NCBI GenBank assembly: GCA_963514005.1
Contig: OY740797.1
Span: forward strand, 19,964,001 to 20,028,000
Reading direction: 5' to 3'
From: Raja brachyura
Taxonomy: Eukaryota
DNA length: 64,000 nucleotides
In this document: positions 5,040 to 60,265 of the stretch, one piece after another
Numbering within the stretch: position 1 is the first letter of the stretch
How the letters are laid out: each line of letters starts with the position of its first letter
Notes under the pieces: model-generated
What the model was told of the DNA's origin: nothing
Database searches by the model: none
What the model saw: only the letters and a program-made list of their open reading frames with translations
Made by a program: the position numbers and the translations under genes

Positions 5040-7985
5040 GGTGGTGGGTGTCTTAAAGGTGTGAGCAGAGAGAAAGAGGGGTATAAAATGACAATAGAAG
5101 CAAGTGGTAGCAAGGTGAAAATTAATAGTGGCTGGCAGACAAATCCAGGAAAGAAATCAAAAGGGGCCACTTGTCAACATAATTGTATAAAGGGTAAAAG
5201 TGTTGTAAAAACAAGCCTGAAGGCTTTGTGTCTCAATGAGAGGAGCATTTGTAATAAGGTAGATGAGTTGAAGGTGCAGATAGCTATTAATTACTATGTT
5301 ATAGTTGGGATCATGGAGATATGGCTCCAGGGTGACCAAGGCTAGGAGCCGAACATCCAGGGATATACAATATTCAGGAGGGATAGATGGAAAGGAAAAG
5401 GAGTTGGGGTAGCGTTGCTGGTGAGAGAGGAGATTAATGCAATAGAAAGGAAGGACATTAGCATGGAGGATGTGGAATCGATATGGGTAGAGCTCCGAAC
5501 CTCTAAGGGGCAGAAAACGCTAGTGGGAGTTGTGTACAGGCCACCTAACAGTAGTATTGGAGTTGGGGATGGCATCAAACAGGAAATTAGAAGTGCGTGC
5601 AACAAGGGTAACACAGTTATAATGGGTGACTTCAATCTGCATTTAGATTGGGTGAATCAAATTGGCAGGGGTGCCGAGGAAGACGATTTCTTGGAATGTA
5701 TGTGGGGTAGTTTTCTAAACCAGCATGTGGAGGAACCAACAAGAGAGCAGGCTATTCTAGACTGGGTATTGAGTAATGAGGAAGGGTTAGTTAGCAGTCT
5801 TGTTGTGCGTGGCCCCTTGGGCAAGAGTGACTATAATATGATTAAGTTCTTCATTAGGATGGAGAGTGACATAATTAAGTCAGAAACAAGGGTTCTGAAC
5901 CTAAACAAAGGTAACTTTGAAGGTTTGAGCCGTGAATTGGCCAAGATAGACTGGCAGGTGAGTCTTAAAGTGTTGACAGTGGATGTGCATTGGAAGGCAT
6001 TTAAAGACTGCATGGATGAAGTACAAAAATTGTTCATACCAGTTTGCAAAATAATAAATCAGGGAAGGTGGTGCATCCATGGATAACGAGGGAAATCAGG
6101 GATAGTATAAAAACTAAAGATGAGGCATACAAATTGGCCAAAAAAAGCAGCCTACAAGAGGACTAGGAGAAATTCAGAATCCAGTAGAGGAGGACAAAGG
6201 GCTTAATTAGGAAAGGGAAAATAGATTACGAAAGGAAACTGGCAGGGAACATAAAAACTGACTGCAAAAGTTTTTATAGATATGTGAAGAGAAAGAGACT
6301 AGTTAGAACAAATGTTGGTCCCTTGCAGTCAGAAGCAGGTGAATTGATCATGGGGAACAAGGACATGGCAGACCAATTGAATAACTACTTTGGTTCTGTC
6401 TTCACTAAGGAAGACATAAATAATCTGCCGGAAATAGCAGTGGACCAGAGGTCAAATAAGATGGCGGAACTGAATGAAATCCAGATTAGCCGGGAAGTAG
6501 TGTTGGGTAAATTGAACGGATTAAAGGCCGATAAAACCCCAGGGCCAGATGGTCTGCATCCCAGAGTGCTCAAGGAGGTAGCCACGGAAATAGTGATAAT
6601 TTTTCAACGCTCCTTAGATTCTGGAGTAGTTCCTGAGGATTGGAGGATAGCTAATGTAACCCCACTTTTTAAAAAAGGAGGGAGAGAGAATGTTGGGAAT
6701 TACAGACCAGTTAGTCTAACATCGGTAGTGGGGAAACTGCTAGAGTCAGTTATTAAAGATGGGATAGCAGCGCATTTGGAAAGTCATTAAATCATTGGAC
6801 AAAGTCAGCATGGATTTACAAAAGGTAAATCTGACGAATCTTATAGAATTTTTCGAGGATGTAACTAGTAGAGTGGATAAGGGAGAACCAGTGGATGCGT
6901 TATATCTACACTTTCAGAAGGCTTTCGACAAAGTCCCACATAAGAGATTAGTATATAAACTTAAAGCACACGGTATTGCAGGTTCAATATTGATGTGGAT
7001 AGAGAACTGGCTGGCAGACAGGAAGCAAAGGGAAGGAGTAAACTGGTCCTATTCAGAATGGCAGGCAGTGAGTAGTGGAGTACCGCAAGGCTCAGTGCTG
7101 GGACTTCAGCTACTTACAATATACATTAATGATTTGGATGAGGGAATTGAATGCAACATCTCCAAATTTGCAGATGACACCAAGCTGCGGGGTATAGTTA
7201 GGTGTGAGGAGGATGCTGGGAGGCTGCAGGGTCATTTGGATAGGCTGAGTGAATGGGCAGATGCATGGCAGATGCAGTATAATGTGGATAAATGTGAGTT
7301 TATCCACTTTGGTGGCAAAAACAGGAGGGTAGACTATTATCTGAATGGTGGCCGATTAGGAAAAGGGATGATGCAACGACACCTGGGTGTCATGGTACAC
7401 CAGTCATTGAAAGTAGGCATGCAGGTGCAGCAGGCAGTGAAGAAAGCAAATGGTAAGTTAGCATTCATAGCGAAAGGATTTGAGTATCGGAGCAGGGAGG
7501 TTCTAATGCAGTTGTACAGGGTTGAGACCACATCTGGAATATTGCGTACAGTTTTGGTCTCCAAATGTGAGGAAAGACATTCTTGCCAAGGAGGTGATTC
7601 AGAGAAGGTTCACCAGATTGATTCCTGGGATGTCGGGACTTTCATATGAAGAAAGACTGGATAGACTCGGCTTGTACTCACTGGAATTTAGAAGATTGAG
7701 GTGGGATCTTATAGATACTTACAAAATTCTTAAGGGGTTGGACAAGCTAGATGCAGGAAGATTGTTCCCGATGTTGGGGGAGTCCAGAACAAGGGGTCAC
7801 AGTCTAAGGATAAGGGGGAATTCCTTTAGGACCGAGATGAGGAAAACATTCTTTACACCGAGGGTGGTGAGTCTCTAGAATTCTCTGCCACAGAAGGTCG
7901 TTGAGGCCAGTTTATTGGCTATATTCAAGAGGGAGTTGGATGTGGCTCTTGTGGCTAAAGGGTTCAGGGTGGTATGGAGAGGTGA
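5040..7985 (+). mobile_element. CR1 LINE, 5'-truncated, ORF2 (APE endonuclease + RT) with stops and frameshifts
   Basis: VYRPP, MGDFN, GKSD(H), [52 protein letters not shown] across ORFs 5061-7878. Confidence 0.95.
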
Positions 7986-8299
7986 ATTACAAGCAGGAGT
8001 CTAAAATATAGCTGATTCGGAGGGCATAACCCTTAGTCCCAATGGAACAAATAAGAGGCATCTAAACAAGAGGAGAGCAAGGACGGCGTATGCGCATACA
8101 CATAATTTATTTTAAATATGCAGATTTATAATTCGAAGATGAAGTAGTGAGAATTATAGCGAGAAGTGGCGAGAACATACAACAGTTAAACACTGCAATG
8201 GGTCTCTCGGCCTGGTATATCTACGTGGAACATGAGGCGACGATAAACTAATCTCCTCTATCTGCATATGATCCACAACCCACCTTGCCTGCAATGTTT

Positions 8300-8425
8300 C
8301 TGAAGAAGGGTCTCGACGCGAAACGTCACCCATTCCATCTCTCCAGAGATGCTGCCTGTCCCGCTGAGTTATTTAGATTTTTGTGTCTATCTTCAGTTTA
8401 AACCAGCATCTGCAGTTCCTTTGCA
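8300..8425 (+). mobile_element. Penelope-derived short repeat with hammerhead ribozyme core (stem II mismatch)
   Basis: CTGAAGA-AGGGTCTCGACGC-GAAACGTC-ACCCATT, then the family body (gatgctgcc...cccgctgagtt...gcatctgcagttcc). Confidence 0.8.
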
Positions 8426-10776: not shown

Positions 10777-11260
10777 TGTATTGGAAGGAACTGCAGATGT
10801 TGGCTTTCACAGAAGATAGACACAAAATGCTGTAGTAACTCAGCGGAACATGCGGCATCTCTAGATAGAAGGAATGGGTGACGTTTCCGGTCGAGACTTC
10901 TTCAGACTGAGGATCAGGAGAGAGGGCGACACAAAGGTATGGAAGTGTAAGGTGTGAGGCTTCAAAGGGAATGAAGCTCAAGGAAAATGTAGAATAGATC
11001 ATTGTTAGCTAGAAGAAGGTGGCAACGACGCATACAGTGGTAAAATTTCATCAGGAGAACATTCAGACTGGTCGGAGAACTAAGAATGGAGCGGGATGGA
11101 GAGAGAGGGAAAGCAAGGATTACTTGAATTTAAAGATCAATATTCATACCGCTGTGGGGTAAGCTTCCCCAGCGAAATATGCGGTGCTGTTCCTCCAATT
11201 TGCATCGAGCCCCACTCTGACAGTGGAGGAGGTCCAGGACAGAAAGGCAGTATGGGAATG
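10777..11260 (-). mobile_element. Penelope-like element 3' fragment: end of GIY-YIG endonuclease ORF, 3' UTR and hammerhead motif
   Basis: ORF end LSVLDLLHCQSGARCKLEEQHRIFRWGSLPHSGMNIDL* (stop 11130) resembles the PLE endonuclease C-terminus. Same-strand CTGAAGAAGTCTCGACCGGAAACGTCACCCATT at ~10874-10905. Confidence 0.8.
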
Positions 11261-11574
11261 GGGGGGGGGGGGGGGGGGTAACGTGTTTAGTAATGGGAGA
11301 TCTGGTAGGTTTATGAGGTTTATGAGGTTTATGCTTCGCTACTAAACTGCGGAAAATCGATTTCCTGTGGTCATTAGGAATAGTACTTAGCGAAGAGAAT
11401 TTGCAGATAATTGTCCTGGTCAATCTTGTGGATAGTTTATTTTGAAATAAATTATCCAGATTTTCAGGTATGCGGCATGCTGCTTGAGTCGGTGGCATGG
11501 AGTTCATGGAAATTCAGGTGTCAGGGTTATGGGGTGAAGGCAGGAGAATGGAGTTAGGAGGGAGAGATAGATCA

Positions 11575-14500
11575 ATAGACAATAGCCAATAGGCAATAGA
11601 CAATAGACAATAGGTGCAGGAGTAGGCCATTTGGCCCTTCGAGCCAGCACCGTCATTCAATGTGTTCATGGCTGATCATCCCCAATCACTACCCTGTTCC
11701 AGCCTTCTCCCCATATCCTCTGACTCCGCTATATCTCGCCATATCCCCTGATCCGCTATCTTTAAGAGCCCTGTCTAGCTCTCTCTTGAAAGCATCCAGA
11801 GAACCTGCCCCCACCGCCCTCTGAGGCAGAGAATTCCACAGACTCACCAATCTCTGTGAGAAAAAGTGTTTCCTCGTCTCCGTCCTAAATGGCTTACTCC
11901 TTATTCTTAAACTGTGGCTCCTGGATCTGGACTCCCCCAACATCGGGAACATGTTTCATGCCTCTAGCGTATCCAAGCCCTTAACAATCATATATGTTTC
12001 AATGAGATTCCCTGTCATCCTTCTAAACTCCAGAGTGTACAAGCCCAGCTGCTCCATTCTCTCAGCATATGACAGTCCCACCATCCCTTGTAAACGTACG
12101 CTGCACCCCCCCCCCCCAATAGCAAAGGGACCAAAACAGCACACAACACCCCAGATGTGGTCTCACTAGGGTTCTGTACGACTGCAGAAGGACCCCTTTG
12201 CTCCTATATTCGATTCCTCTTGTTATAAAGGCCAACATGCCATTTGCTTTCTTCACTGCCTGCTGTACCTGCATGCGTACTTTCATAGACTGATGTACAA
12301 GGACCTCCAGATCCTGTTGTACTTCCCCTTTCCCAACTTGACGCCATTTATATAGTAATCTGCCTTCCTGTTTTTGCTACCAAAGTGGAAAAGTGGATAA
12401 CCTCACATTTATCCACATTACACTTCATCTGCCACGCATCTGCCCACTCCCCAATCTGTCCAGGTCACCCTGCATTCTCATAGCATCCTCCTCACAATTC
12501 ACTCTGCCACCCAGCTTTGTGTCATCTGCAAATTTGCTAATGTTACTTTGAATCCCTTCATCCAAATCATTGATGTATATTGTAAATAGCTGCGGTCCCA
12601 GCACCGAGCCTTGCGGTACCCCACTAGTCACTGCTTGCCATTCTGAAAGGGACCTGTTAATCCTTACTCTTTGTTTCCTGTCTGCCAACCACTTCTCTAT
12701 CCATGGCAGCACTCTACCCCCAAAATCATGTGCCCTAATTTTGCCCACCAATCTCATATGTGGGGCCTTATCAAATGCTTCCTGAAAGTCCAGGTATGCT
12801 GGCTCTCCCTTGTCCATTTTCCTAGTTACATCTTCAAAAAATTAGTCAAGCATGATTCCCCCTTCGTAAATCCATGCTGACTCGGTCCGATCCTGTAACT
12901 GCTAACCAAATAAGCGGCTATCTCATCTTCTATAATTGACTCCAGCATCTTTCCCACCACCGATGTCAGGCTAACTGGTCTATAATTCCCCGTTTTCCTT
13001 CTCTCGCCTTTCTTAAAAAGTGGGATAACATTAGCTACCCTCCAACCCACAGGAACTGATCATGAGTCTATAGAACATTGGAAAATGATCAACAATGCAT
13101 CCACGATTTCCTTAAGTACCCTGGGATGCAGACCATCATACCCTGGGGATTTATCAGCCTTCAGTCCCATCAGTCTATCCAACACCATTTCCTGCCTAAT
13201 GTGGATTTCCTTCAGTTCCTCTGTGACCTCAGACCCTCTGGCCACTACTATATCAAGAAGATTGTTTGTGTCATCCTTAGTGAAGACAGATCCAAAGTAC
13301 CTGTTCAACTCATATGCCATTTCCTTGTTCCCCATAATAAATTCACATTTTTCGGTCTTCAAGGGTCCAAATTTGGTCTTAACTATTTTTTTCCTCTTCA
13401 CATACCTAATGAAGCTTTTACTGTCCTGCTTTATATTCTTGGCTAGCTTATCTTCGTAACTCATCTTTTCTCCCCGTATTGTCTTTTTGGTTATCTTCTG
13501 TTGTTCTTTAAACATTACCCAATCCTCTTGCTTCCCGTTCATCTTTGCTACGTTGTACTTCTTCGCTTTAATTTTTATTCTGTTCCTGACATGCCTTGTC
13601 AGCCATGGTCGTCCCTTTCTCCCCATGGAATCTTTCTTCCTCCTAGGAATGAACTGATCCTGCACCTTCTGTCTTATTCCTAGATACAACTTCCATTTTT
13701 GTTCCACTGTCATCCCCGCTAGTGTATCTTTCCAGTCAACTTTGGCCAGCTCCTCCCTCATGGCCCCATAGTCCCCTTTATTCAACTGCAACACTGACAT
13801 CTCCGATCTACTCTTCTGCCTCTCCAATTGTAGATTAAACCTGACCATGTTATGGTCACTGCCTCCTCATGGCTCATTAACCTCGAGGTCCTTTATCAAA
13901 TGCGGTTCATTACATAACACTAAATCCAGAATTGCCTTCTCCCTGGGAGGCTCCAATACAAGCTGTTCAAATAATCTATCACGAAGGCACTCTACAGTCC
14001 CTTTCTTGGGGTCCATTATCAACCTGATTTTATCAGTCTACCTGCATGTTGAAATCTCCCATAACAACCACAGCATTACGTTTACTACATGCCAATTTTA
14101 ACTCCTTATTCAACTTGCGCCCTATGTCCAGGCTACTGTTTGGGGGCCTGTAGATTAGTCCCATTAGGGTATTTTTCCCCTTACAATTCCTTAGTTCTAT
14201 CCATACTGACTCCACATCTCCTGTTTCAATGTCACCCCTTGTAAGGGACTGAATTTCATTCCTCACCAACAAGGCAACCCCACCCCCTTTGCCCACCTGC
14301 CTGTCTTTTCGATAGGAGGTATACCCTTGAATATTCAGTACCCAGCCCTGGCCATCTTGCAGCCATGTCTCAGTAATTCCCACAACATCATACTTGCCAG
14401 TTTCTAACTGAGCCTCAAGCTCGTCCACTTTATTTCTTATACTACGCACATTCTTATACAGTACTTTGACCTCCGTATTCACTCCCCCCCCCCCCTTCGC

Positions 14501-14792: not shown

Positions 14793-15847
14793 ACTGAATG
14801 GCGGAGTAGACTTGATGGGCCGAATAGCCTAATTCCATTCCTATCACTTATGACAAGTTAAACTCATTCACAAGAGCAGTAGATTATAATTCCAGATAAG
14901 AGAAAATCGCGCTATTGAGAATAGAGAGGGGATAGGCAAACACGAATAAATTGCCACATTATTTCAAGAGCAAGAGCATACACGTGCTATGTGGCACACT
15001 CTGGCATTCACATTATTTCACTATGTCATAGGTGCATCAGTGGAAAGAATCATAAACAGTTTGCAATTTGTGCACAGTCTTGATAGTTATTAAGTTGCAT
15101 CACCATCCAGTGTGGACGATTTAATACATAGCTTTATTTGAATACAGTACAATAGATTTAATGTAAAAAAAATCTGCATATGTAAGTGACCAAGTGCTAT
15201 ACATTTCTGAAGGCCAGTCTGAAGACGGGATCCAATTCAAAAGGTCGTCTCCCCATTTGCCTCCACAGATTTTGCCTGGCTGCTGATTTCTTGCAGTTCA
15301 AGATTCCAGCACCTCCAGTCTCTTGTGACACCATATATTTTTTACGTAAATAATTCTCAGGATCTTCTGAAAATCATAATTCATCCAAGACGAATCAATC
15401 ATATTTGATTACATGACATTAGTTTTTCATCTATTTTTCTGAATAATTTCATAATGGGACGTACAGGATGAATAAAGTGACAAGTGGGCGCACTGTTTTC
15501 AGCATCCAGAACACAGTCCGCAGGAAGCTGCATAGACGGTTACTGCACATTAAGATATTTGAGACTGCCGTTGCTGGGATCATGAGAAAAACAGCAAAGC
15601 GGTGGAGGAACTCAGCAGGCGAGGCAGCATCTGTGGAGGGAATGGACAGACGACGTTTCAGATTATAACCTGATGGAATAGTGTGGATTAAGCTGGAAGA
15701 TAGCTGGGGTGGGACAAAACCTATCCAGTGATAGGTGGATGCAGATGATGGGCGAAATTGTCATGTTGAGAAGGCGGCAGCTGTACATGTAGTACGGGGA
15801 TCACCCGACCTCCGCGCGGCCCCCTCTGCTGGTTTGGTCGGGCTCAC

Positions 15848-24652: not shown

Positions 24653-27610
24653 GGTGAAAAGTAAAAGTGGCAGGCAGAAAAACCCAGGGCAAAAATCAAA
24701 AAGGGCCACTTATCAAAAAAATTGTATAAGGGGTAAGAGTGTTGTAAAAACAAGCCTGAAGGCTTTATGTCTCAGTGCAAGACGCATTTGTAATAAGGTG
24801 GATGAGGTGAATGTGCAGATAGTTATTAATGAATATGATATAGTTGGGATCACGGATACATGGCTTCAGGGTGACCACGGCTGGGAGCTGAACATCCAGG
24901 GATATTCAATATTCAGGAGGGATAGGCAGAAAGGAAAAGGAGGTGGAGTAGCATTGCTGGTTAGAGAGGAGATTAACGCAATATAAAGGAAAGACATTAG
25001 CTTGGAGGATGTGGAATCGATATGGGTAGAGCTGCGAACAAGGGGCATAAAACGCTAGTGGGAGTTGTGTACAGGCCACCTAACAGTAGTAGTGGAGTTA
25101 GGGATGGCATCAAATATGAAATTATAAATGCGTGCAACAAAGGTAAAACAGTTATAACGGGTGATTTCAATCTACATATAGGTAGAATTTGGGTGAATCA
25201 AATTGGCAGGGGTGCTGAGGAAGAGGATTTCTTGGAATGTATGCGGGATAGTTTTCTAAACCAACATGTAGAGGAACCAAGGAGAGAGCAGGCTATTCGA
25301 TACTGGGTAAGGAGTAATGAGGAAGGGTTAGTTAGCAGTCTTGCTGTGCATGGCCCCTTGGCAAGAGTGACCATAATATAGTTTTCTTCATTAGGATGGA
25401 GAGTGACATTGTTAATTCAGAAACTAAGGTTCTGAACTTAAAGAAAGGTAACTTTGAGGCGTGAGACGTGAATTGGCCAAGATAGTCTGGCAAGTGAATC
25501 TTAAAGGGTTGACAGTGGATATGCAATGGAAGGCATTTGAAGACTGCGTGGATGAACTACAACAATTGTTCATCCCAGTTTGGCAAAATAATAAATCAGG
25601 GAAGATAACAAGGGAAATCAGGGATAGTATCAAAACTAAAGATGAAGCATAAAAATTAGACAGAAAAAGCAGCCTACCAGAGGACTGGGAGAAATTCAGA
25701 GTCCAGCAGAGGAGGACAAAGTGCTTAATTAGGAAAGGGAAAATAGATTATGAAATAAAACTGGCAGGGAACATAAAAACGGACTGCAAAGGTTTTTATA
25801 GATATGTGAAGAGAAAAAGGTTAGTTAAAACAAATGTAGGTCGCTTGCAGTCAGAAACTGGTGAATTGAACATGGGGAACAAGGACATGGCAGACCAATT
25901 GAATAACTACTTTGGTTCTGTCTTCACTAAGGAAGACATAAATAATATGCCGGAAATAGCAGGGAACCAGGGGTCAAATGAGATGGAGGAACTGAGTGAA
26001 ATCCAGGTTAGCCAGGAAGTGGTGTTAGCTAAATTGAATGGATTAAAGGCGGATAAATCCCCAGGGCCAGATAGGCTGCATCCCAGAGTACTTAAGGAAG
26101 TAGCCCCAGAAATAGTGGATGCATTACTGATAATTTTTTCAAAACTCTTTAGATCCTGGGGTAGTTCCTGAGGATTGGAGGGTAGCTAATGTAACCCCAC
26201 TTTTTAAAAAGGGAGGAAGAGAGAAAACGGGGAATTACAGACCAGATAGTCTAACAACGGTAGTGGGGGGAATACTAGAGTCAGTTATTAAAGATGGGAT
26301 AGCAGCACATTTGGAAAGTGGTGAAATCATTGGACAAAGACAGCATGGATTTATGAAAGGTAAACCATGTCGGACGAATCTTATTGAATTTTCGAGGATG
26401 TAACTAGTAGAGTGGATAAGGGAGGACCTTTGGATGTGTTGTATCTGGACTTTCAGAAGGCTTTCGACAAGGTCCCACATAAGAGATTAGCATTCAAACT
26501 TAAAGCACACGGTATTGGGGGTTCATTGTTGATGTGGATAGAGAACTGGCTGTCAGACAGGAAGCAAAGGGTAGGAGTTAACGGGTCATTTTCAGAATGG
26601 CAGGCAGTGACTAGTGGGGTACCCCAGCAATTTACACGATATATTAATAATCTGGATGAGGGAATTGAATGCAACATCTCCAAGTTTGCGGATGACACGA
26701 AGCTGGGGGCCAGTGCTAACTTGAGGAGGATGCTAGGAGGCTGCAAGGTGACTTGGATAGGTTGGGGGAGTGGGCAAATGCATGGCAGATGCAGTCTAAT
26801 GTGGATAAATGTGAGGTTATCCACTTTGGCTGCAAAAACAGGAGGGTAGACTATTATCTGAACGGTGGCCATTTAGGAAAGGCGGAGATGCAACGAGACC
26901 TGGGTGTCATGGTGCACCAGTTATTGAAAGTAGGCATGCAGGTGCAGCAGGCTGTGAGGAAAGCGAATGGTATGTTGGCATTCATAGCAAAATAATTTGA
27001 GTACAAGAGCATGGAGGTTCTACTGCAGTACATGGTCTTGGTGAGGCCACACCTGGAGTATTGCGTGCAGTTTTGGTCTCCTAATCTGAGGAAAGACATT
27101 CTTGCCATAGAGGGAGTACAGAGAAGGTTCACCAGACTGATTCCTGGGATGGCAGGACTTCCATGTGAAGAAAGACTGGATAGACTCGGCTTGTACTCGC
27201 TGGCATTTAGGAGATTGAGAGGGGATCTTATAGAGACTTAAAAAATTCTTAAGGGGTTGGACAGGCTAGATGCAGGAAGATTGTTCCCGATGTTAGGGAA
27301 CTCCAGAACAAGGGGTCACAGTTTAAGGATAAGGGGGAAGTCTTTTAGGGCCGAGATGAGAAGATCATTTTCACACAGAGAGTGGTGAGTCTGTGGAATT
27401 CTCTGCCACAGAAGGTAGTTGAGGCTAGTTCATTGGCTATATTTAAAAGGTAGTTAGATGAGGCCCTTGTGGTTAAAGGGATCCGGGGGTATGGAGAGAA
27501 GGCAGGTACAGGATACTGATTTGGATGATCAGCCATGATCATATTAAATGGCGGTGCAGGCTCGAAGGGCCGAATGGCCTACTCCTGCACCTATTTTCTA
27601 TGATTCTATG
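24653..27610 (+). mobile_element. CR1 LINE (same subfamily as 5040-7985) inserted into an older antisense CR1
   Basis: Full EN+RT motif series and a (TTCTATG)-type tail. ATCCT is duplicated at 24648-24652 and 27611-27615. Confidence 0.93.
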
Positions 27611-29015: not shown

Positions 29016-29279
29016 TTAAAATTATGCCGACGTCGGCCTATTTTAGAGTGTGGCCAGCGTGTTGCGGAAGTGGTGTGACGATTTTAGCCACCTTCTTGGG
29101 GAAGATCTACATGTGGATCTATTCGATTTTTGGGGAAGTCAATATGCTCGACGAAATAGTTAATGTCCTACAGTTTCTGCAGACTCGTTCATTCTTGGAT
29201 GATGCAGCTAGTAAGTGTGGTTTGCAGCTTACAACTGCAGAAGTTCAGAGACATGCAGAATATTTTGGAAAGCAGTGGC

Positions 29280-30545
29280 AGGATCGGACAAGGTCAGCAT
29301 TGATTTATGAAGGGGAAATCAAGCTTTACAAATCTTCTCGATTTTTTTGGAATATGTAACAAGTAGAATGGATAAGGGAGAGCAGTGGGTGTGGTGTATC
29401 TTTTCTTTCAAAAAGCCTTCGACAAGGTCCCCCACAGGAGACTAGTGTGTAAAATTAGAATATGGTACGGGGGGTAGGGTAGGATAGAGAACTGGTTGGC
29501 AGTCAGAAACCAAAGAGTAGGATTTCACAGGTCCGTTTCAGAATGACAGGCAGTGACTAGTGGGGTGCCGTAAGGCTTGGTGCTGGGACCCCAGTTATTT
29601 ACGATATATATTAATGATTTGGATGAAGGGATTCAAAGTAACATTAGCACATTTTCAGATGACACAACGCTGGGTGGCAATGTGAACTGTGTGGAGGATG
29701 CTAGGAGAATGCAGGGTGACTTGGACAAGTTGATGTGAGGTTATCCACTTTGGTAACAAAAACAGGAAGGCAGATTATTATCTAAATTGCGTCAAGTTGG
29801 GAAAAGGGGAAATACAACGGGATCTGGGGGTCCTTGTTCATCAGTCTATGAAAGTAAGCATGCATGTACAGCAGGCAGGGAAGAAAGCAAATGGCATGTT
29901 GGCCTTTATAACAAGAGGAGTCGAGTATAGGAGCAAAGAGGGCCTTCTGCAGTTGTACAGAGCCCTAGTGAGACCACACGTGGATTGTTGTGTGCAGTTT
30001 AAGTCCCCTAATTTGAGGAAGGACATTCTTCCTATTGAGGGAGTGCAGCGTAGGTTTACAAGGTTAATTCCCGGGACTGTCATATGCTGAGAGAATGGAG
30101 CGGCTGGGCTTGTACACTCTGGAGTTGAGAAGGATGAGAGGGTATCTTATTGAAACATATAAGATTGTTAAGGATTTGGACATGCTAGAGGCAGGAAACA
30201 TGTTCCCGATGTTGAGGGAGTCCAGAACCAGAGGCCACAGTTTAAGAATAAGAAGTAAACCGTTTAGAACGGAGACGGGGAAACACTTTTTCTCATAGAG
30301 CGTTGTGAGTGTGGAATTCTCTGCCTCAGAGGGTGGTGGAGGCAGGTTATCTGGATGCTTTCAAGAGAGAGCTAGACAGGGCTCTTAAAGATAGCGGATC
30401 AGGGGATATGGGGAGAAGGCAGGAACGGCATACTGATTGGGGATGATCAGCCATGATCACACTGAATGGTGGTGCTGGCTCAAAGGGCCGAATGGCCTAC
30501 TCCTGCACCTATTGTCTATTGTCTATTGTCGATTGGCTATTGTCT
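29280..30545 (+). mobile_element. CR1 LINE, 5'-truncated RT and 3' UTR
   Basis: [41 protein letters not shown]; (TATTGTC)n tail. Confidence 0.9.
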
Positions 30546-30549
30546 CTTC

Positions 30550-30672
30550 CCTATCTCTATCTCTATCTTCTCTATCTCTACACTCTCTATCTTCTTCTCT
30601 ATCTCTATCTACATCTCTATCTCTATCTTCTCTTCTCGATCTCTATCTCAGTCTCTTCTTCTTCTCTATCTC
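30550..30672 (+). repeat. (CTCTAT)n microsatellite
   Basis: Imperfect hexamer array. Confidence 0.9.
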
Positions 30673-43199: not shown

Positions 43200-43505
43200 T
43201 TCTATGAAAGGGTCTCGACCCGAGGCAGAGTTTCTTCCCACAGCCCATCAGGACTGTAAACTCTGATCTCACCGGGGAGTAATTATTGTTGTGTCTTTTA
43301 AAAATATATAAATACTGGTTCTGTTCTGTTCTGTTCTGTTGTTCTGTTGTTTTGCACAATCCCGCAGGTATTATCACTTTCATGTCACTGTACATCTTGT
43401 ATGTGTATGTGACAAATAATGTGGACTTGACTTGACCCATTCCTTATTTCGATGGATGCTGCCTCGCCCGCTAAGTTGCTCCAGCATTTTGTGTCTACCT
43501 TCGAC
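43200..43505 (+). mobile_element. Penelope/hammerhead repeat split by a Rex/Babar-like 3' fragment (~43223-43435)
   Basis: agggtctcgacccga | gagtttcttcccacagcccatcaggactgtaaac...(CTTGA)n | cccattcc...gatgctgcc...ccagcattttgtgtctacc. Confidence 0.65.
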
Positions 43506-43822
43506 TTTTATGAAATGTTTTTTGTCCCTTTATCGTTTTCCAGTCGATTTCCTCCCAATGCAATTATCTCCCAAGCATTAAAGTGCGGCATTCTATTATT
43601 CTACTTCACGTTGCTTCTTTTAAAATTGTCTTAAGGTAGTCATTGTGCAAGCCTTTAATCGTCTGCCCATTGGGATGCTTAATGCTGGTACATTGAAGCG
43701 TTGGTGTAAAAATGATTCACCTTAACCTTTCTCCCAATATTACTGCTGTAGATCTAATTTTTTATTCCGCTATTCTGATCAGCTACTAACTCATTCTCAA
43801 CTGCAAATATTCCCAGTCTTAC

Positions 43823-45907: not shown

Positions 45908-46096
45908 CTGCCGAAAATTAAGGAAGAAATTAGTTGCGTATACTGGATAAGGTAAATAATAGCAAATTAATACAAAACAATCGTGGAAGAAAGGCACCCG
46001 AATTGGCGCATTTTTGCTATATCTGCCGGATGTAAACAGGAACAAAATGTAAAATATAAATTGCAATTCAGCAACAACACAAATACCTAAACTCAC

Positions 46097-46151
46097 CATG
46101 CCAAATTATACCACATAGCGCCATGTACCGTACAGGAAATGTCGCCAACAT
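46097..46151 (-). CDS. IgSF gene B leader exon
   Basis: 55 nt, MLATFPVRYMALCGIIWH+G|gtgagt. Confidence 0.87.
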
Positions 46152-47899
46152 ATTTGGAAAGGTGGCTTGTCCACTCGTTGTAATTGAATGTGGTTTCTTT
46201 GCAAGTTTGTCAAGTAAATAGGATCTCTTGAGTACTTGTACGGAACATGTGATCCTGACGTCCAGTATCACATGATTAACGGAGCTTTTTGTAGGTTAGT
46301 GTTTATCTGAGATGCAATGCACCCCCCGCCACTCCCGGGGTGATTGTTTTTAAGTGATCTACATCCTTACATCCTTTATCAAACAACGTCCACATTTCCT
46401 GATTCTGAATTCACCATTTTGATCATTGGCGTGAACCTTTTCCCACCCTTCACACAAGAGATAATTGTTGTTCAGTGAGCGCTGCCAAATATTAGTCACG
46501 GACCCTTGTGACTTAGAGCACTTCCAATTTTCCCCAACTTCCATTAAAAAAAGGCTTGAAGCCGCTGGAGAAAGACATTTTATTATTCTCCAGCTCAGAT
46601 CTGCTGAGTCCAATTTTAATGTTATTGCTCGGTGGATTCTAAAGACCTATTTCGAATGGCAACAATACTGCGAAGTAAAACTGTCCAGAATGACCAACGC
46701 TACAGCACAATAACACAAAGTGTTTGAAGTGCAAGACCCATTCAAAATTCAGTGTATTGCCCGTTTTTTGCCCGGCCAAGGCCAAGGCCAAGTTATGTCA
46801 TTTGCAACATGAGGTGAAAATCAATCAGGAGCATTTTCCTTATGTAATTCTTTGGTAATAGCATGTCTGACCGTTACACCAGAAAGGGTGTCACCCATCT
46901 ATCCTTATTATTCATAACTGAAATACTTTTCCTTATTATTTTTGTGTTTAAGGAGAAAAACACTTGACTATTTTCTTCACTTACCAGAATTATTTCACCA
47001 CCTTCTTTTACGTTCGGTCTCCACACTCTCTCACTTTTCTAACTTGCAACTGTCAGGTTGGAAAGCAACATTCCGGCAGAGGCCTAACCAGGAAAGGCTT
47101 AACATAATTTAGTTCACTATAAATAAAGGATCGGGTGTGACTTTGAGAGCAATCTCGTATGCTCTATCAACTTAAAACATTTGTGAAGTAACAATGACAG
47201 TTCTGCCTGTAATTCCGCCCCCTTTCATATTTTGTAAAGTTCGTTTGCACTGAAATGTTCCTTCCCTCTACGATCAGTGAAATGTGGCCATTTGGGTTAA
47301 TATATCCTTTTTGTTCCATCTTCAATTACATAGACATGAGAGCAGATCTACTTATTTCGAATTGCATTCCCGAGAATCTGTAATAAAAGTTTGATTGCTT
47401 CAGTGGCGGCTGAGTTATTTTTATAACCTTCCTTTATGATTGAAGTTCTGAAATTAGCCAGACTTTTGCTCTTTTAGTTGAGTCCGCTGCTTCCGATGAC
47501 ACTTTAATGTCAGCGCTGAATGATCCCTGAGCTTAGTAATGGTTGCAATGCTTCTGCTACTGAAATAAACCTGAACTGAAATGTTGAGCGGAATATAACG
47601 GAGTTACATTTGTGGTTACTGAATTTACAATAGGCTACTGAATATAACCCAAACATTGGATCAATACAATGCTGAGAACAAAAGAAAAACTGAAATTATT
47701 AAATTAATAAACCTGGAAAATTAAACTAAATAAAAAATATTGTGTGCATCACGACTCAAGAGAACTTTTGAGAATCGGACTGCCAAAGCAATAATTGTAC
47801 ATCATTGTAAATTATATAACTGACGGTCTTCGCATGAAGGCTAACCATGAAGGAACAGCATCATGCGTAGTACATTGAGTTCCTGGAGACTACTGCAAT

Positions 47900-49768
47900 A
47901 AGATTTAAAGACCGCATGGATGAACTCCAGAAATTGTTCATCCCTGTCTGGCGAAAAAATAAAACAGGGAAGGCGGTTCAACCGTGGCTGGCGAGGGAAG
48001 TCAAGGATAGCGTTAAAGTCAAGGAAGAGACATCAAAATTGGCCAGACGAAGCGGCAAACCAGTAGACTGAGCTAAATTTAGAACTCAAAAGAGGAGGAC
48101 AAAAGGTTTAATTAAGGGGGGGGGGGGGGGGGGGGGCATGAAAGAAAGCTTGCGGGGCATATAAAAAATGACGAAAAGCTTTTTAGGTATGTAAAAAGGA
48201 AAAGATTATTGAAGACGAATGTAGGTCCCTAACAGTCAGAGATAGATGAATTTATAATGGGAAACAAGGAAATGGCAGAACCGTTAAACGAGTACTTTGG
48301 TTATCTTCACTAAGGCAGACACAAACAATCTCCCAGAAATAATAGGGGACCGAGGATCTAATCGGAGGGAGGAACTGAAGGGAATATACATGGGTCTGAA
48401 GAAGGGTTTCGGCCCGAAACGTTGCCTATCTCCTTCGCTCCATAGATGCTGCTGCACCCGCTGAGTTTCTCCAGCATTTTGTGTACCAGGGAATATACAT
48501 CAGTCAGAAAATCGTGTTAGGTATTCTGTTGGGACTGAAGGCAGATACATCCCGAGATGGCCAGATGGTCTGCATCCCAGAGTACTCAAGGAGGTGGCCC
48601 TCGAAATCGTGGATGCGTTGGTGATAATTGTCCAACGTGCTCTCGACTCTGGATCAGTACCTGTGGACTGGAGTGTAGCCAATGTAACTCCACTTTTTAA
48701 GAAAGGGGGGAGAGAGAAAACGGGGAATTATAGACCAGTTCGCCTTACATCGGTGGTGGAGAAGATGCTGGAGTCGATTATTAAAGATGTTATAGCAGCG
48801 CATTTGGAAAGCAGTGACGGCATCTGTCAAAGCTAGCATGGGTATATGAAGGGGAAAACATATATGAGTAAACATTTTGAGGATTTAACAAGTAGACTGG
48901 ATAAGGGAGAACCAGTGGATGTGGTATATCTGGACTTTCGACTTCCGTCCAACATCAGGCTTCCAGAGATTGGTGTGCAAAATTAGAGCAACTGGTATTG
49001 GGGGTAGAGTTTTGACATGGATAGAGAACTGGTTGGCAGACAGGAAGGAGAAGAGTGGGAATTAACGGGTCCTTTTCAGAATGTCAGGCAGTGATTAGTG
49101 GGGTGCTGCAAGGCTTGGTGCTGGAACCCCAGTTTTTTTACAATATATATTAACGATTTAAGCCGGGGAATTAAATGTAACATCACTAAATTGGCGGATG
49201 ACACAAGGCTGGGGGGCAGTGTGAGCTGCGAGGGGGTGCTGTGAGGCTGCAGGGTGACTTTCATAGGTTGGATGAGTGGGCAAAAGGCAGTCACGATAAC
49301 ATGTGGACAAACGTGAGGTTATCCACTTTGGTGGCAAGAACAGGAAGGCAGATATTTATCTGAATGGTGTCAGAATAGGAGAAGGGGAAGTACAATGAGA
49401 GCTGGGTGTGCTTGTTCATCAGTCACTGAAAGTAAGCATGCAGGTACAGCAGTCAGTGAAGAAAGCCAATGGCATTTTGGCCTTCATTGCGAGAAGATTT
49501 GCGTTTAGGAGCAAGTAGGTATTACTGCAGTTGGACAGGGTCCTGGTGAAACTGCACTTGGAGTATTGTGTGCAATTTTTATCTGTTAATTTGAGGAAGA
49601 ACATTATTGCTATTGAGGGAGTGCAGCATAGGTTCACCAGGTTAATTCCCGGGATGGCGGGACTGACATGTGATTAAAGAATGGGTCGAGAGTGGATCTT
49701 ATAGAAACATATAACATTCTTAGAGAATTGGACAGGGTAGATGCAGGAAATGTTTTCCCGATGTTTCC
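47900..49768 (+). mobile_element. CR1 LINE, decayed linker and RT
   Basis: LHPRVLKEVALEIVDAL, NYRPVRLTS, ADDT; many stops. Confidence 0.88.
48392..48487 (+). mobile_element. 96-bp hammerhead-containing Penelope-derived insertion with 13-bp TSD
   Basis: AGGGAATATACAT at 48379-48391 and 48488-48500 flanks GGGT-CTGAAGA-A-GGGTTTCGGCCC-GAAACGTT-GCCTAT...TTTGTGTACC. Confidence 0.92.
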
Positions 49769-52278
49769 CGGTATAAGAAGTAAAGTAGATGAGCTTGAGG
49801 CTCAGTTAGAGGTTGGTAGATATGACATTGTGGGGATTACTGAGATGTGGCTGCAGGAGGATCAGTCCTGGGAATTTAATATTCAGGGTTATACATCCTA
49901 TAGAAAGGACAGGCAGGTGGGCAGGGGGGGTGGGGGGGGGGGGGGGTAGCTCTGCTGGTGAGGGATGGAATTCAGTCCCTTGCGAGCGAAGACATAGGGA
50001 CTGACGATGTAGAGTCACTTGAGTTGAGGAATTGTAAAGGCAAGAAGACACTAATTGGTGTTATCTACAGACCCCCAAATAGTAGCCCGGATGTAGGGTG
50101 TAAGTTGCAGCAGGAGTTTAAACTGGCATGTAACAAAGGTAATGCCACTGTGGTGATGGGGGATTTCAATATGCAGGTAGACTGAGAAAATCAGGTTGGT
50201 TCAGGACCCCAAGAAAGAGCGTTTGTAGAATGCCTCCAAGATGGATTCTTAGAGCAGCTTGTAATGGTGCCGACCAGAGAAATTACAATTCTGGATTTAG
50301 TGTTGTCCAATGAACCAGATATGGTAAGAGAACTCGAGGTAAATGAACCGCTTGGAGGTAGTGAGCATAATATGATTCGTTTTAATCTGCAATTTGAGAA
50401 GGAGAACGTTAAATCGGAAGTGTCAGTGATGCAGTTGAACAAAGGGGACTATGAAGGCATGAGAGGGGAGCTGGCCAAGGTAGACCGGAAAGGGTTCCTA
50501 GCAGGAATGATGGTGGAACAGCAATGGCAGGAATTTCAGGGCATAATCCGGAAGATGCAGGATCATTTCATTCCAAAAAGGAAGAAAGATTCTAAAGGGA
50601 GTAGGAGGCAACCGTGGCTGACAAGAGAAGTTAGAGATAGAATAAAACTAAAAGAAAAGACTATAACACAGCAAAGAGTAGCCAGAATCCAGAGGATTGG
50701 GAAACGTTCATAGGACAACAGAAGGAAACAAAAAGGGCAATACGGGCTGAAAAGATGAAGTACGAAGGAAAGCTGGCCAGGAATATAAAGAAGGACAGTA
50801 AAAGCTTCTTTAGATATGTTATGGGAAAAAGTCAAATGTGGGTCCCTTGAAGGCAGACACGGGTGTAATTATTATGGGCAACAAGGAAATGGCAGAAGAG
50901 TTGAATAGGTACTTCTGATCTGTCTTCACTAAGAAATACACAAATAATCTCCCAGATGTACTGGAGAACAGAGGATCTAAGGGGGTAGAGGATCTGAAAG
51001 AATATTCATTAGGCGAGAAATAGTATTGGGTAGGCTAATGGGACTGAAGGATGATAAATCTCCTGGGCCTGGTGGTCTGCATCCCAGGGCCCTCAGGGAG
51101 GTGGCTCTAGAAATAGTGGATGCATTGATGATCATTTTCCAATGTTCAATAGATTCAGAATCAGTTCCTGTGGATTGGAGGATAGCTAATGTTATCCCAC
51201 TTTTCAAGAAAGGAGCGAGAGAGAAAACGGGGAATTACAAGCCAGTTAGCCTGACTTCGGTGGTGGGAAAGATGCTGGTCAATTATTAAAGAGGTAATAA
51301 TGGGGCATTTGGATAGCAGTAAAAGGATTAGACCAAGTCAGCATGGATTTATGAAAGGGAAATCATGCTTGACTAATCTTCTGGAATTTTTTGAGGATGT
51401 GACAAGTAAAATGGATGAAGGGGTGCCAGTGGATGTAGTGCATCTAGACTTTCAGAAAGCCTTTGATAAGGTCCCGCACGGGAGACTGGTGACTAAAATT
51501 AGAGCACATGGTATTGGGGGTAGGGTGTTGACATGGATGGAAAATTGGTTGGCAGACCGGAAACAAAGAGTAGGAGTGAACGCGTCCTTTTCACAATGGC
51601 AGGCAGTGGCGAGTGGAGTGCTGCAAGGCTCGGTGTTGGGGCCGCAACTGTTTACCATATATATTAATGATTTGGAAGAGGGAATTAGGAGCGACACTAG
51701 CAAGATTGCGGATGACACAAAGCTGGGTGGCAGTGTGAACTGTGAAGAGGATGTTAGGAGGTTGCAGGGTGACCTGGACAGGTTGAGTAAGTGGGCAGAT
51801 GCGTGGCAGATGCAGTATAATATAGATAAATGTGAGGTTAAGAGAGAGTTAGATAGAGCTCTAGGGGCTAGTGGAGTCAAGGGATATGGGGAGAAGGCAG
51901 GCACGGTCGAAGGGCCGAATGGCCTCCTCCTGCACCTATTTTCTATGTTTCTATGTTGGGAGAGTCCAGAACCAGGGGGTCACAGTTTAAGAATAAGGAG
52001 TAGGCCATTTCGGACTGAGATGAGGAAACACTTTTTCACCCAGCGAGTTGTGAACCTGCGGAATTCTCTGCCACAGAAGGCAGTGAAGGCCAATTCACTG
52101 GACGTTTTCAAGAGATCGTTAGATTTAGCACTTAACGCTAGGGGAATCAAGGGATACGGGGAAAAAGCCGGGACGGGGTACTTATTTTGGATGATCAGCC
52201 ATGATCAAATTGAATAACGGTGCTGAGTCTATGGGCCGATTGGTCTACTCTTGCACCTATTCTCTATGTTTCTATGAT
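49769..52278 (+). mobile_element. CR1 LINE (EN+RT) plus stacked CR1 3' ends
   Basis: IRSKVDELEAQL...GITEMWL, YRPP, GDFN, FQKAFDKVPH, ADDTKL. Internal deletion at ~51838 joins to a 3' UTR; a second 3' end spans ~51955-52278. Confidence 0.9.
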
Positions 52279-52634
52279 CAATCAGCTATCTTCTTAAACG
52301 TTGCTTGATATTCGTTCGATCTTTACAAGTATTCATTTCAATTTCTAAATATCATTACTTTTGGAATCATCTGCCTGACTTTATTCCGATTAATTAGTTG
52401 AGGAAAGGGACTCAAGACAATGTCACCGCCCTTGAAGGGTAGCGCAACAGGAATAAGGCTGCCAGAGCGTTCTAGCTTTTCAAATTTCCCTTCCAACGAA
52501 ACTAACATGTTTACTCTAGCAATCAGGGTCACAGTCATAGACAGGTACAGCATGGAAATATACCCACATTGACAATAAAGCACAAAGTGCTGGAGGAACT
52601 CAGCGGGCCAAGCAGCCATTTCTGGCCAACGCTA

Positions 52635-54597
52635 GGCCCTGTTTCACAGTGCGAGTCCACCCAAGAGTGACCCCAAGTGAAAGAAAAAAAACGGACTCGT
52701 GGTTATGCACGAGATTCAAAGTTTATGGTCAAGTGTGTAACCGAGTTCCCACGGGCATGTTCAATGCGATGTTCCAAGGTGCTCTCCCGAGTTACCAAGT
52801 TCCTCTCCCGTTACACTTGAGCCAACCGTGAATGAAGGTATGTTTTAATAAAGCAACAATGTTAAAGAAGACATCTCCATCCTGTGGCTTTGAGTTAAAG
52901 ATAGAAATCAGCGCGGCTGCATCTATTAATATGACCTACAGAGGGAAAATGCGCATCAGATTGTTGGGAGACGGAGCTCAGGGTTCGCCTCCTGAGCTGC
53001 TTTGGTGCCCAGGCGTGAGGGAGGTTGGGGAGGGGGGGGGGGGGGGCGTCATTAATCTGTCTGGGGTGACAAGGCCCTTGGGTTAGGAGTGGTGTGCAAG
53101 GGAGACTTAATTCTCTCCGATCTCGCTGAAGCCCCGGACCAGAACAAAGGAAACCCATCTTGCCAGCGCGTACAAGCCCGTTGTATATAAGGGTCTCGAC
53201 CCGAAACGTCACCTGTCTCCTTCACTCCTTCGCTCCTTAGATGCTGCTGCACCCGCTGAGTTTCTCCAGCTTTTTGTGTACCCCCGTTGTATATAACTTT
53301 GCTGCTGACGCGCACACCCACTCTCTCTCCCTCCCTCTCTCTCTCTCTGCTCTCTATCACTGCAGCTCAGAGCCCAAGCTCGCCATCCTATAGTGGTAAC
53401 ATTCACATCGGGTCCCCTCCACACCCACACCCCCTCTCTCCGACACACACCCCCCACAAGGCAACAGGCAGCGTGAGAGACAGAGAGTTTGTAGGGTGTT
53501 AGTTTTGTATAAGGATTTATTTTTAAATTATTAGCCAAGGTCGGATTTACTTATTTTAAACGATGTTTGGAGCGCTTGACAATACTTTTTACTCTTTGCG
53601 CTCGTTTTCAGAAAGGGTTCAGACCCCGCTTGGCTCGTTGCCCCCTTTGAACCAAGCCCTGCGAGAGGGATGGAGGGAGGGAGGGAAGGTGTGAGTGAAC
53701 AAGAGCGCCGAGGAGGAGAGGGAAATAGGGGGGGTGGGGGAGTGCGTGGAGGAGAAATTGGGAAGAAGTTAGTTGTTCAGATCAGAAACCTGTAGGCTGG
53801 GAGCCATAATGGTGAAGAGCACACCCAGTTCTTCTGAGGAGTGCATAAGAGACTTAGATCGGAAGCAATGTTCCTCTAGAACTGTAACTGAAACCGTGTC
53901 CACATCACCTCCTCTTGGCCGGACCGCAACACCAAATCTACGCGTCAGGAAAATCCAATGTTCATTGATTCATCTCCATGGTTTTTATAGCTAATTTTCC
54001 AATAAATAACTGCAGTAATCACCCCCCGAAAGGGTAGGATAGGGCTGAAGCCCAGTGTTTAGACATTGGAATGTTTTTTTTTAATCATTCTAATAGAATG
54101 ATTTTCCAACTCCTGTGGTAATTAAACTTTTTTTTCACTCCTAGTTTTTTTTAACATATTTTTAGGATATACATTATATATAAAATTGTACACATGGGAA
54201 AATAAGACGAAAATGACCAAAAAACAAAGAATATTTAGTCTACGGGTGAATTAAATTTTGTGATTAAGACTCAAATGTGAATGGCACTGAAATATTTTAA
54301 AGAGTTCCCACGGTAGACTCACGAATCACTACGTTAAACGCACGGGCCCTACGTTCTTACAACGAGTCTAAATGTTTCAATTTTAAACTTGAACACTAAA
54401 TTTGACTCGTGAAAAAAGTCAAACATGTTTGACTTTTTTCACGAGTTCACAAGTTTCGCGGGTACCTGCCGTTAGCGCCACGAGTGGACAAGTTGATCGC
54501 GCGAGGTCCCACGTTCCCGCTACGTTGGCTGTACGTGATCACCAAGAGTGAAAACTCGGGGTCACTCGTGGGCCAACTCGCACCGTGAGACAGGGGT
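52635..54597. mobile_element. Non-autonomous TIR DNA transposon, PIF/Harbinger-like
   Basis: ~40-bp imperfect TIRs: ggccctgtttcacagtgcgagtccacccaagagtgaccccaagt vs actcggggtcactcgtgggccaactcgcaccgtgagacaggggt. Flanks CTA and TTA. No transposase ORF. Confidence 0.75.
53191..53282 (+). mobile_element. 92-bp 5'-truncated hammerhead-family insertion with 14-bp TSD
   Basis: CCCGTTGTATATAA at 53177-53190 and 53283-53296 flanks GGGTCTCGACCCGAAACGTCACC...TTTGTGTACC. Confidence 0.9.
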
Positions 54598-59851: not shown

Positions 59852-60265
59852 GTGTGTAGGAAGGAACTGCGGATGCTGGTTAACACCGTAGACAGACACG
59901 GAATGCTGGAGTAACTCAGCGGGACAGGCAGCATCTCCGGAGAGAAGGAATGGGTGACGTTTCGGGTCGAGACCCTTATTCAGACTGAGAGTCAGGGGAG
60001 AGGGAAAGCAAAGGGAAACTAGAGATAGGGAAGGATCAAAGAGGGGGAGCCGCGGAGAGGGCGTTGCAGAACTCTCGTCGTAGAGAGGAGAACTTCTTCA
60101 AAGTCGACATACCTTGAGGAGATTTCGCAATGGAGCAGACTGGAGAATGTGTAGGAAGGAACTGCAGATAGTGGTTTACACCGAGGATAGACACAAAATG
60201 ATACCCAGCGGGACTGTTGCCTGCCCTGCTGAGTTACTCCAGCATTCTGTGTTTAACTTCAGTGG
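59852..60265 (-). mobile_element. Penelope-derived repeats, tandem and inverted, with a mutated hammerhead core
   Basis: Minus strand CTGAATAAGGGTCTCGACCCGAAACGTCACCCATT at ~59949-59983. A second tail copy at ~60148 is followed by an inverted piece. Confidence 0.75.

Follow-up and report, generated by a model that had tools for sequence, protein, structure and literature searches.

An insert with a hammerhead core interrupts a LINE

The window analysed here is a 64,000-nucleotide stretch of the Raja brachyura genome (assembly GCA_963514005.1, contig OY740797.1, positions 19,964,001 to 20,028,000), and all features described at the focal locus lie on its forward (+) strand. A decayed LINE fragment at 47903..49765, recognised by self-BLAST to five window paralogs, is interrupted by a 96-bp insert flanked by a 13-bp direct repeat (48379..48391 and 48488..48500). 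The host is an APE-endonuclease/RT LINE, with Pfam matches to RVT_1 and Exo_endo_phos on the window paralog at 49904-52214, and from its motifs we take it to be CR1-like. Fragments of several LINE subfamilies are abundant in the window (5114-7981, 11563-14442, 24653-27608, 29264-30558, and 49771-52289), and one is nested beside the host copy. In the sequence examined, fourteen LINE copies span the site; the 13-mer is single in all 13 paralogs and the focal copy alone is longer, by 109 bp, so the insert is a true insertion with a target-site duplication (TSD), as had been proposed from the sequence alone.

We number from C3 of the hammerhead core as +1 (window position 48396), with -1 being the base before C3. 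The insert begins with two non-native G residues (48392..48393), the native upstream sequence being CAGT, followed by positions -2..+92 of a pseudo-LTR (pLTR; 48394..48487). Its 3' end (48484..48487) lies at a site that we call A, at about +92, where we infer that reverse transcription began; an optional 37-nt tail, which leads to a second site, B, is missing here. At least nine related pieces are present within the window.

The parent is an autonomous Penelope-like element

Longer copies extend upstream into an ORF encoding YIDD, a C-x4-C-x2-C linker, and LIYCIRCxxC..YIGET. Pfam recognises RVT_1 and then GIY-YIG in one 550-aa open frame, at E values of 0.004 and 0.0005, both matches falling short of the curated cut-offs, and a PDB search with the RT-EN frame returned no matches. 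Three loci (L236, L242, and L243) contain seamless units of 3,930, 3,959, and 3,980 bp that begin and end in the same pLTR, the ORF starting at about +163, after the tail. The same hammerhead core lies downstream of 29 of the 30 best endonuclease matches, and several of 30 core-anchored loci run upstream into common sequence. The element has an RT-GIY-YIG ORF, pLTR tandems, an optional 30-40-bp tail, and inverted 5' copies, all features of EN+ Penelope-like elements (PLEs). By comparison with these parent copies, the focal insert is nucleotides -2..+92 of the pLTR of a 3.9-4.0-kb autonomous RT/CxxC/GIY-YIG PLE. The sequence-only reading had attributed the insertion to a PLE RT and GIY-YIG endonuclease, and rightly so; the parent encodes both. 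The element occurs as two subfamilies, S and L, distinguished by loop II and by the length of the 3' UTR, and the focal copy is S-type. One locus (L236; G000:C1:38831000-38840999) has more than two seamless full-length units arranged head to tail.

The linker reads CNRKRCYTC and the endonuclease motif IRCSRC in two copies (L024 and L043), such that both the CX2-5CxxC linker and the cysteines inside GIY-YIG that characterise the Neptune clade are present. This linker type is common to Neptune and Nematis (PMC8557442), and the vertebrate PLE clades reported in bioRxiv 2026.07.22.740005 are Neptune and Poseidon only; because of the linker motif and this vertebrate range, the parent most likely belongs to Neptune. 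It resembles the Neptune-clade EN+ PLEs of PMC8557442 and PMC3846280 in its RT, its CX2-5CxxC linker, and a GIY-YIG with internal cysteines, and also in its partial tandems, inverted arms, one-end tail (already known from PMC8557442), and variable TSDs.

Older subfamilies of the same pLTR are found in the window at 8299-8421, 10784-10910, 59860-59988, 43435-43508, 15595-15659, 52581-52616, and 60160-60252, and near the last of these an inverted arm includes the ORF start.

The hammerhead is of the PLE kind and predicted to be inactive at the focal locus

Viewed as RNA, the insert has all of the parts that the sequence-only reading described: the CUGAAGA core with an extra A between positions 9 and 10.1 (48396..48403), a 4-bp stem II, GGGU/GCCC, with a UUCG loop (48404..48415; its U-G pair is U-A, with a CUCG loop, in the L subfamily), and GAAAC-GU-U with the palindromic stem III remnant AACGUU and the GUU triplet (48416..48423), the predicted cut being after 48423. 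The 3' strand of stem I follows (48424..48429), of which the first 2 nt alone pair in the parent element. Its classification as a minimal type I hammerhead of the PLE kind also holds, with a core fitting CUGANGA, the extra base, GAAA, UH, a G10.1-C11.1 pair in stem II, and the palindromic stem III remnant. Descriptor hits are uniform in these respects, with CTGAAGA in 144 of 151 and the extra A in 145 of 151. The minimal PLE hammerheads of PMC4209133 are likewise type I, with an extra base between 9 and 10.1, G10.1-C11.1, and a palindromic 15.2-16.2; they are described as mostly single dispersed motifs ascribed to truncated PLEs, as here, and as inactive in monomeric form.

Stem I needs revision. 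Three G-U pairs had been counted in it, and we find two; two of its bases had been assigned to the target, and the AT is indeed target DNA, but the GG is foreign to the element as well, so four of the six 5' bases are non-native. The native upstream sequence is ..CATCAGT or ..GACCAGT, giving the parent a 2-bp stem I (U-G or U-A, plus G-C), as in D. virilis Penelope, whereas that of Schistosoma has 4-5 bp (PMC4209133). By-eye counts among 100 listed copies of the class ending at -2 gave GG before GT in 28, often as AAGGGT, a hexamer that the element itself contains, and the same six junction bases as the focal copy in two. The focal GG probably arose by slippage before joining, as a short copy of GGGT at +9..+12 of the element. 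Because such junctions recur in this class, a 6-bp stem I is a by-product expected in some hundreds of copies, and that of the focal insert is an accident of its local junction and no family trait.

The excised focal 40-mer has a minimum-free-energy structure with the 6-bp stem I and stem II (-10.5 kcal/mol), and the same pairs have a probability of about 0 in a 161-nt context; the whole insert is no more stable than shuffled sequences (z +0.87 and +1.06). There is no second hammerhead at the focal locus, the nearest other copies being kilobases away. The hammerhead is thus predicted to be inactive and passively carried here, because it is a single copy with no stem III partner and a fold that is disfavoured in context. 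For the parent RNA (L152, 1053-1260) the best fold has the core of the hammerhead paired to the tail beside site B, an alternative that would hold the ribozyme off, though the signal is weak (z -0.64).

Two lines of support anticipated by the sequence-only reading did not materialise. A hammerhead match was sought with Rfam models, and a scan of 46000-51000 at E up to 10 gave nine weak matches, none of them to a hammerhead. Covariation in stem II had also been expected, and among 51 copies of low divergence, which give little power, none of the seven hammerhead pairs has a two-sided change, with only U-A/U-G switches being seen; the covariation score was not above shuffles (410 of 500), and RNAalifold gave three pairs with zero covariation. 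As the copies diverge so little, the missing covariation weakens the case for hammerhead function without excluding it.

Solo copies do not separate from long ones

Copies were counted genome-wide by sequence patterns. The intact minimal-core pattern occurs 80,438 times in the 2.7-Gb genome, an exact core 34-mer 3,497 times, and an exact 33-mer of the 3' part 5,644 times, with zero matches to the reversed controls. In one region of 264 kb, taken without selection, 12 close copies were found, a density that would amount to roughly 120,000 genome-wide. The corresponding core numbers in PMC4209133, obtained by differing methods, are about 4,000 for coelacanth and 9,000 for Xenopus.

The sequence-only reading regarded the insert as a non-autonomous ribozyme retroposon, in which solo copies of about 95 nt would be transcribed, self-cleave as dimers, and re-insert in trans. 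The size class that it predicted does exist, with copy ends at -6..+2 and at site A; its TSDs and its tens of thousands of copies would suit independent spread, and animal retrozymes are reported to derive from pLTRs (bioRxiv 2026.07.22.740005). However, 36 solo and 27 long copies are not separated into lineages (permutation p 0.93), and the solo:long ratio is similar in the two subfamilies (28:26 and 15:11). Over +1..+85 the focal insert itself matches a long copy (L049) without a difference, and it is one edit away from an endonuclease-bearing copy (L035). Copy ends also ignore the ribozyme cut site: ends within +27..+31 number zero among 56 simple copies and two among 116 arms. The focal insert has a single hammerhead, and neither tandem units with at least two hammerheads nor a lineage apart from the autonomous element, the marks of non-LTR retrozymes, were found for it. 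In addition, solos lack the sequence past site B, presumably the counterpart of that needed by the anole protein (PMC11167929). We therefore consider independent mobility very unlikely. Judged from sequence comparison, the discrete class is one of parent-element pieces, and the focal insert is probably a by-product and the end of its line, not a mini-ribozyme that spreads in its own right.

3' ends fall at two sites and 5' ends pile up at one

The sample of ends was anchored on the 3' part, which leaves 5' ends free, and covers parts of two contigs (C1 and C17). It drew on the window, 20 neighbouring stretches, and 68 anchored loci and gave 135 arms, or 129 once six flank duplicates had been dropped; two of those dropped (L119 versus L069 and L071) may represent separate insertions into a single LINE site. 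Five structurally different copies (L062, L069, L071, L119, and L239) occupy apparently one LINE position, which hints at a preferred target site. Separately, copies at 53189-53282 in the window and at L059 (G000:C1:4053038) lie in the same site of another repeat, with a 14-bp TSD; they start at about +7..+9 without the CUGA core, and could reflect an old insertion later duplicated or a hot target.

Among 59 simple copies, 3' ends fall at site A (+84..+100) in 34, at site B (+120..+134) in 20, and elsewhere in five, the two sites (about +92 and about +129) being ~37 nt apart. A two-site pattern has been shown for the Poseidon element PAc of Anolis carolinensis (PMC11167929), where in vitro reverse transcription starts internally at two AC-rich sites bounding the tail, both target strands are extended, and unprocessed, uncleaved RNA is the main substrate. 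PAc differs in belonging to another clade and in the position of its ORF start, which lies inside stem II rather than after the tail. Of 100 events, 38 have a TSD of at least 9 bp; these range from 9 to 18 bp, with most at 12-15, and are 63% A+T. Only 14 of 26 solos have an exact TSD of at least 7 bp.

The 5' ends show a pile-up that is new here: 26 of 46 copies reaching +2 end at -6..+2, with 0.9 expected from a background of 14 ends per 5,695 nt, and the other 20 (about 40%) pass the site. Exact-core copies were also tallied across the genome, excluding those with C at -11 and so most long copies of both S and L type: native sequence is lost at -2 in 12,146 and at -3 in 8,101, and CAGT is kept in 13,127. 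The stop is 8 nt wide, and native sequence reaches -6/-7 at 6 of 11 tandem junctions of L type; the RNA end would accordingly span more than a single base. At three 5' junctions (L130, L131, and L138) the first few bases of the element are re-copied repeatedly, as if the cDNA end had re-annealed several times.

The sequence around the stop, YCAGTCT, is kept across subfamilies with differing upstream UTRs; we take it to fit the initiator consensus, with A at -3. A DPE-like match near +25..+29 is partial and carries no weight here. Long copies have a pyrimidine tract and CAG ahead of the core, and the end could thus be read as a 3' splice site (CAG|T) or a back-splice junction. Of 55 short copies, however, 47 retain G at -2 and 39 retain A at -3, and upstream of the end there is no constant exon, which makes splicing scarcely credible as the cause.

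Stops are correlated within inserts

Forty-one inserts have an inverted arm, with 3' ends at A+B in 31, A+A in three, B+B in none, and one other end in seven. A+B therefore accounts for 31 of 34 two-site inverted inserts, where independent choice predicts 50% (p 3e-7), and we suggest priming by a dimer, with site A used on one target strand and site B on the other.

Seventy-eight loci (L206-L283; for example, L210 at G000:C1:10466664-10469695, L228, L240, and L241) include pLTR tandems that carry internal deletions and two or three hammerheads, in units of about 190-330 bp joined at many distinct junctions; these are retrozyme-like and have apparently arisen de novo many times. Among the 78 loci, 37 two-segment inserts could be classified, by eye from BLAST segments and with the 3' segment taken as first-made. 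Where the 3' segment stops at -8..+8, the upstream segment stops too in 18 of 19, compared with 4 of 18 where the 3' segment passes the stop (Fisher p 7e-6; p 0.003 when repeated and full units are set aside). Where rejoined tandems run past the stop, their upstream segment never exceeds the 5' end of the first segment.

These inserts bear on whether the solos are ordinary 5' truncations of long cDNAs, with RT pausing at a structure just upstream of the core. PLEs are typically truncated at the 5' end (PMC8557442), ends are found throughout the length of this element, and stop rates are similar in tail-ending and ORF-bearing pLTRs. A pause, however, should act independently at each passage, whereas stops are correlated within an insert, and the S and L subfamilies differ in their upstream UTRs yet stop alike; we accordingly give pausing little credence. 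The correlation points to a template end rather than a random pause, and indicates that the 5' stop is the 5' end of a template, probably a transcription start.

Sequence just past site B has 685 exact occurrences, and about 25 of 30 such loci are short rejoined tandems. Their rejoin points cluster at +185..+265; the 5' edge of the rejoined segments is sharp and the 3' edge fuzzy. In L210, L228, L240, and L241 the junctions are repeated two or three times, as expected for repeated end-to-end jumps or a small circle. Contigs of four DNA-like sequencing runs did not bridge the focal locus, and in those of four runs guessed to be RNA no usable splice or circle joint was seen; neither outcome bears on expression.

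The edges would also be explained if protein protected about -3..+200-260 of RNA from the same parent PLE and a nuclease-trimmed core served as template, with no transcription start involved. The anole protein's requirement for sequence beyond the tail (PMC11167929) fits such protection. Conservation of YCAGTCT despite differing upstream UTRs does not, nor does the internal Inr/DPE-type promoter of the Penelope pLTR (PMC2377424). A G just before AGT, in 45 of 100 listed copies counted by eye, could have been added through a cap; part of this G is slip copying, and the cap signal is therefore confounded. On balance we judge trimming to be unlikely.

A model for the origin of solo pLTR pieces

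We favour, with reasonable confidence, the reading that the focal insert is a solo pLTR piece (-2..+92) of an autonomous, likely Neptune PLE, made by A-primed run-off on uncleaved RNA. The element's own GIY-YIG/RT protein would nick the target, and reverse transcription would begin at internal site A, priming at A and B being proposed by analogy with the anole PLE in vitro. The RT would then run off the 5' end of an uncleaved RNA starting likely 2-4 nt upstream of the core, and GG would be slipped in before joining. That RNA end would be the transcription start, as suggested by the Inr-like YCAGTCT and the internal promoter of Penelope. This position is shared as a start by tens of thousands of copies, probably because the RNA that the enzyme copies is short and is read from a fixed internal site through to its first base. 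Since trimming of an RNA shielded by protein would leave an identical pattern in the DNA, we hold the start-site step, given the rest of this reading, to be only somewhat better than an even prospect. A second type of template (multimer, circle, or upstream start) is also needed, as about 40% of copies pass the site and some, such as L236, exceed one unit; the hammerhead may act on multimeric or circular templates, as proposed in PMC4209133.

More tentatively, and at less than even confidence, we suggest that the main templates are short pLTR RNAs that start 2-4 nt before the core and end at +185..+265, on which a dimer would prime at A and B, run off, and jump end to end, yielding both the 95- and 130-bp solos and de novo retrozyme-like tandems.

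Relation to known elements and implications

Solo pLTRs have been noted in Adineta, several of them without TSDs and ascribed to recombination or deletion (PMC3846280); here, solos with a sharp 5' end and a TSD are a dominant class. Pairing of A and B arms and a genomic run-off class are likewise seen here, and we found neither described for PAc in the text of PMC11167929 that we consulted. In searches of the open literature, we found no description of a sharp 5' run-off class or of A+B pairing. Non-LTR retrozymes (PMC7229834; bioRxiv 2026.07.22.740005) are similar to the focal insert in being non-coding and pLTR-related with a type I hammerhead, but they are reported as 150-450-bp tandem repeats with at least two hammerheads and a circRNA, whereas the focal insert is a single 96-bp copy. 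The mini-tandems of this genome (191-328-bp units) resemble them more closely than the focal insert does.

The single insert is ordinary, one of about 100,000 dead copies, and a solo pLTR piece is a known kind of element; the part worth following is the population-level pattern of ends. For the regeneration of tandems, the one-end tail, and the role of the hammerhead in PLEs, questions raised in PMC2377424 and PMC11167929, fixed coordinates are now available from this genome, namely the two RT starts, the single template 5' end, and a near-strict pairing of A and B arms. The jump junctions, which generate repeats with two hammerheads, provide further fixed and testable coordinates. Hammerhead screens will score such solos as retrozyme monomers. 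If the joint reading of short templates is true, non-LTR retrozymes would have a direct route of origin in PLEs, the hammerhead sequence would double as a core promoter, and the 95- and 130-bp solos would be strong-stop-like products.
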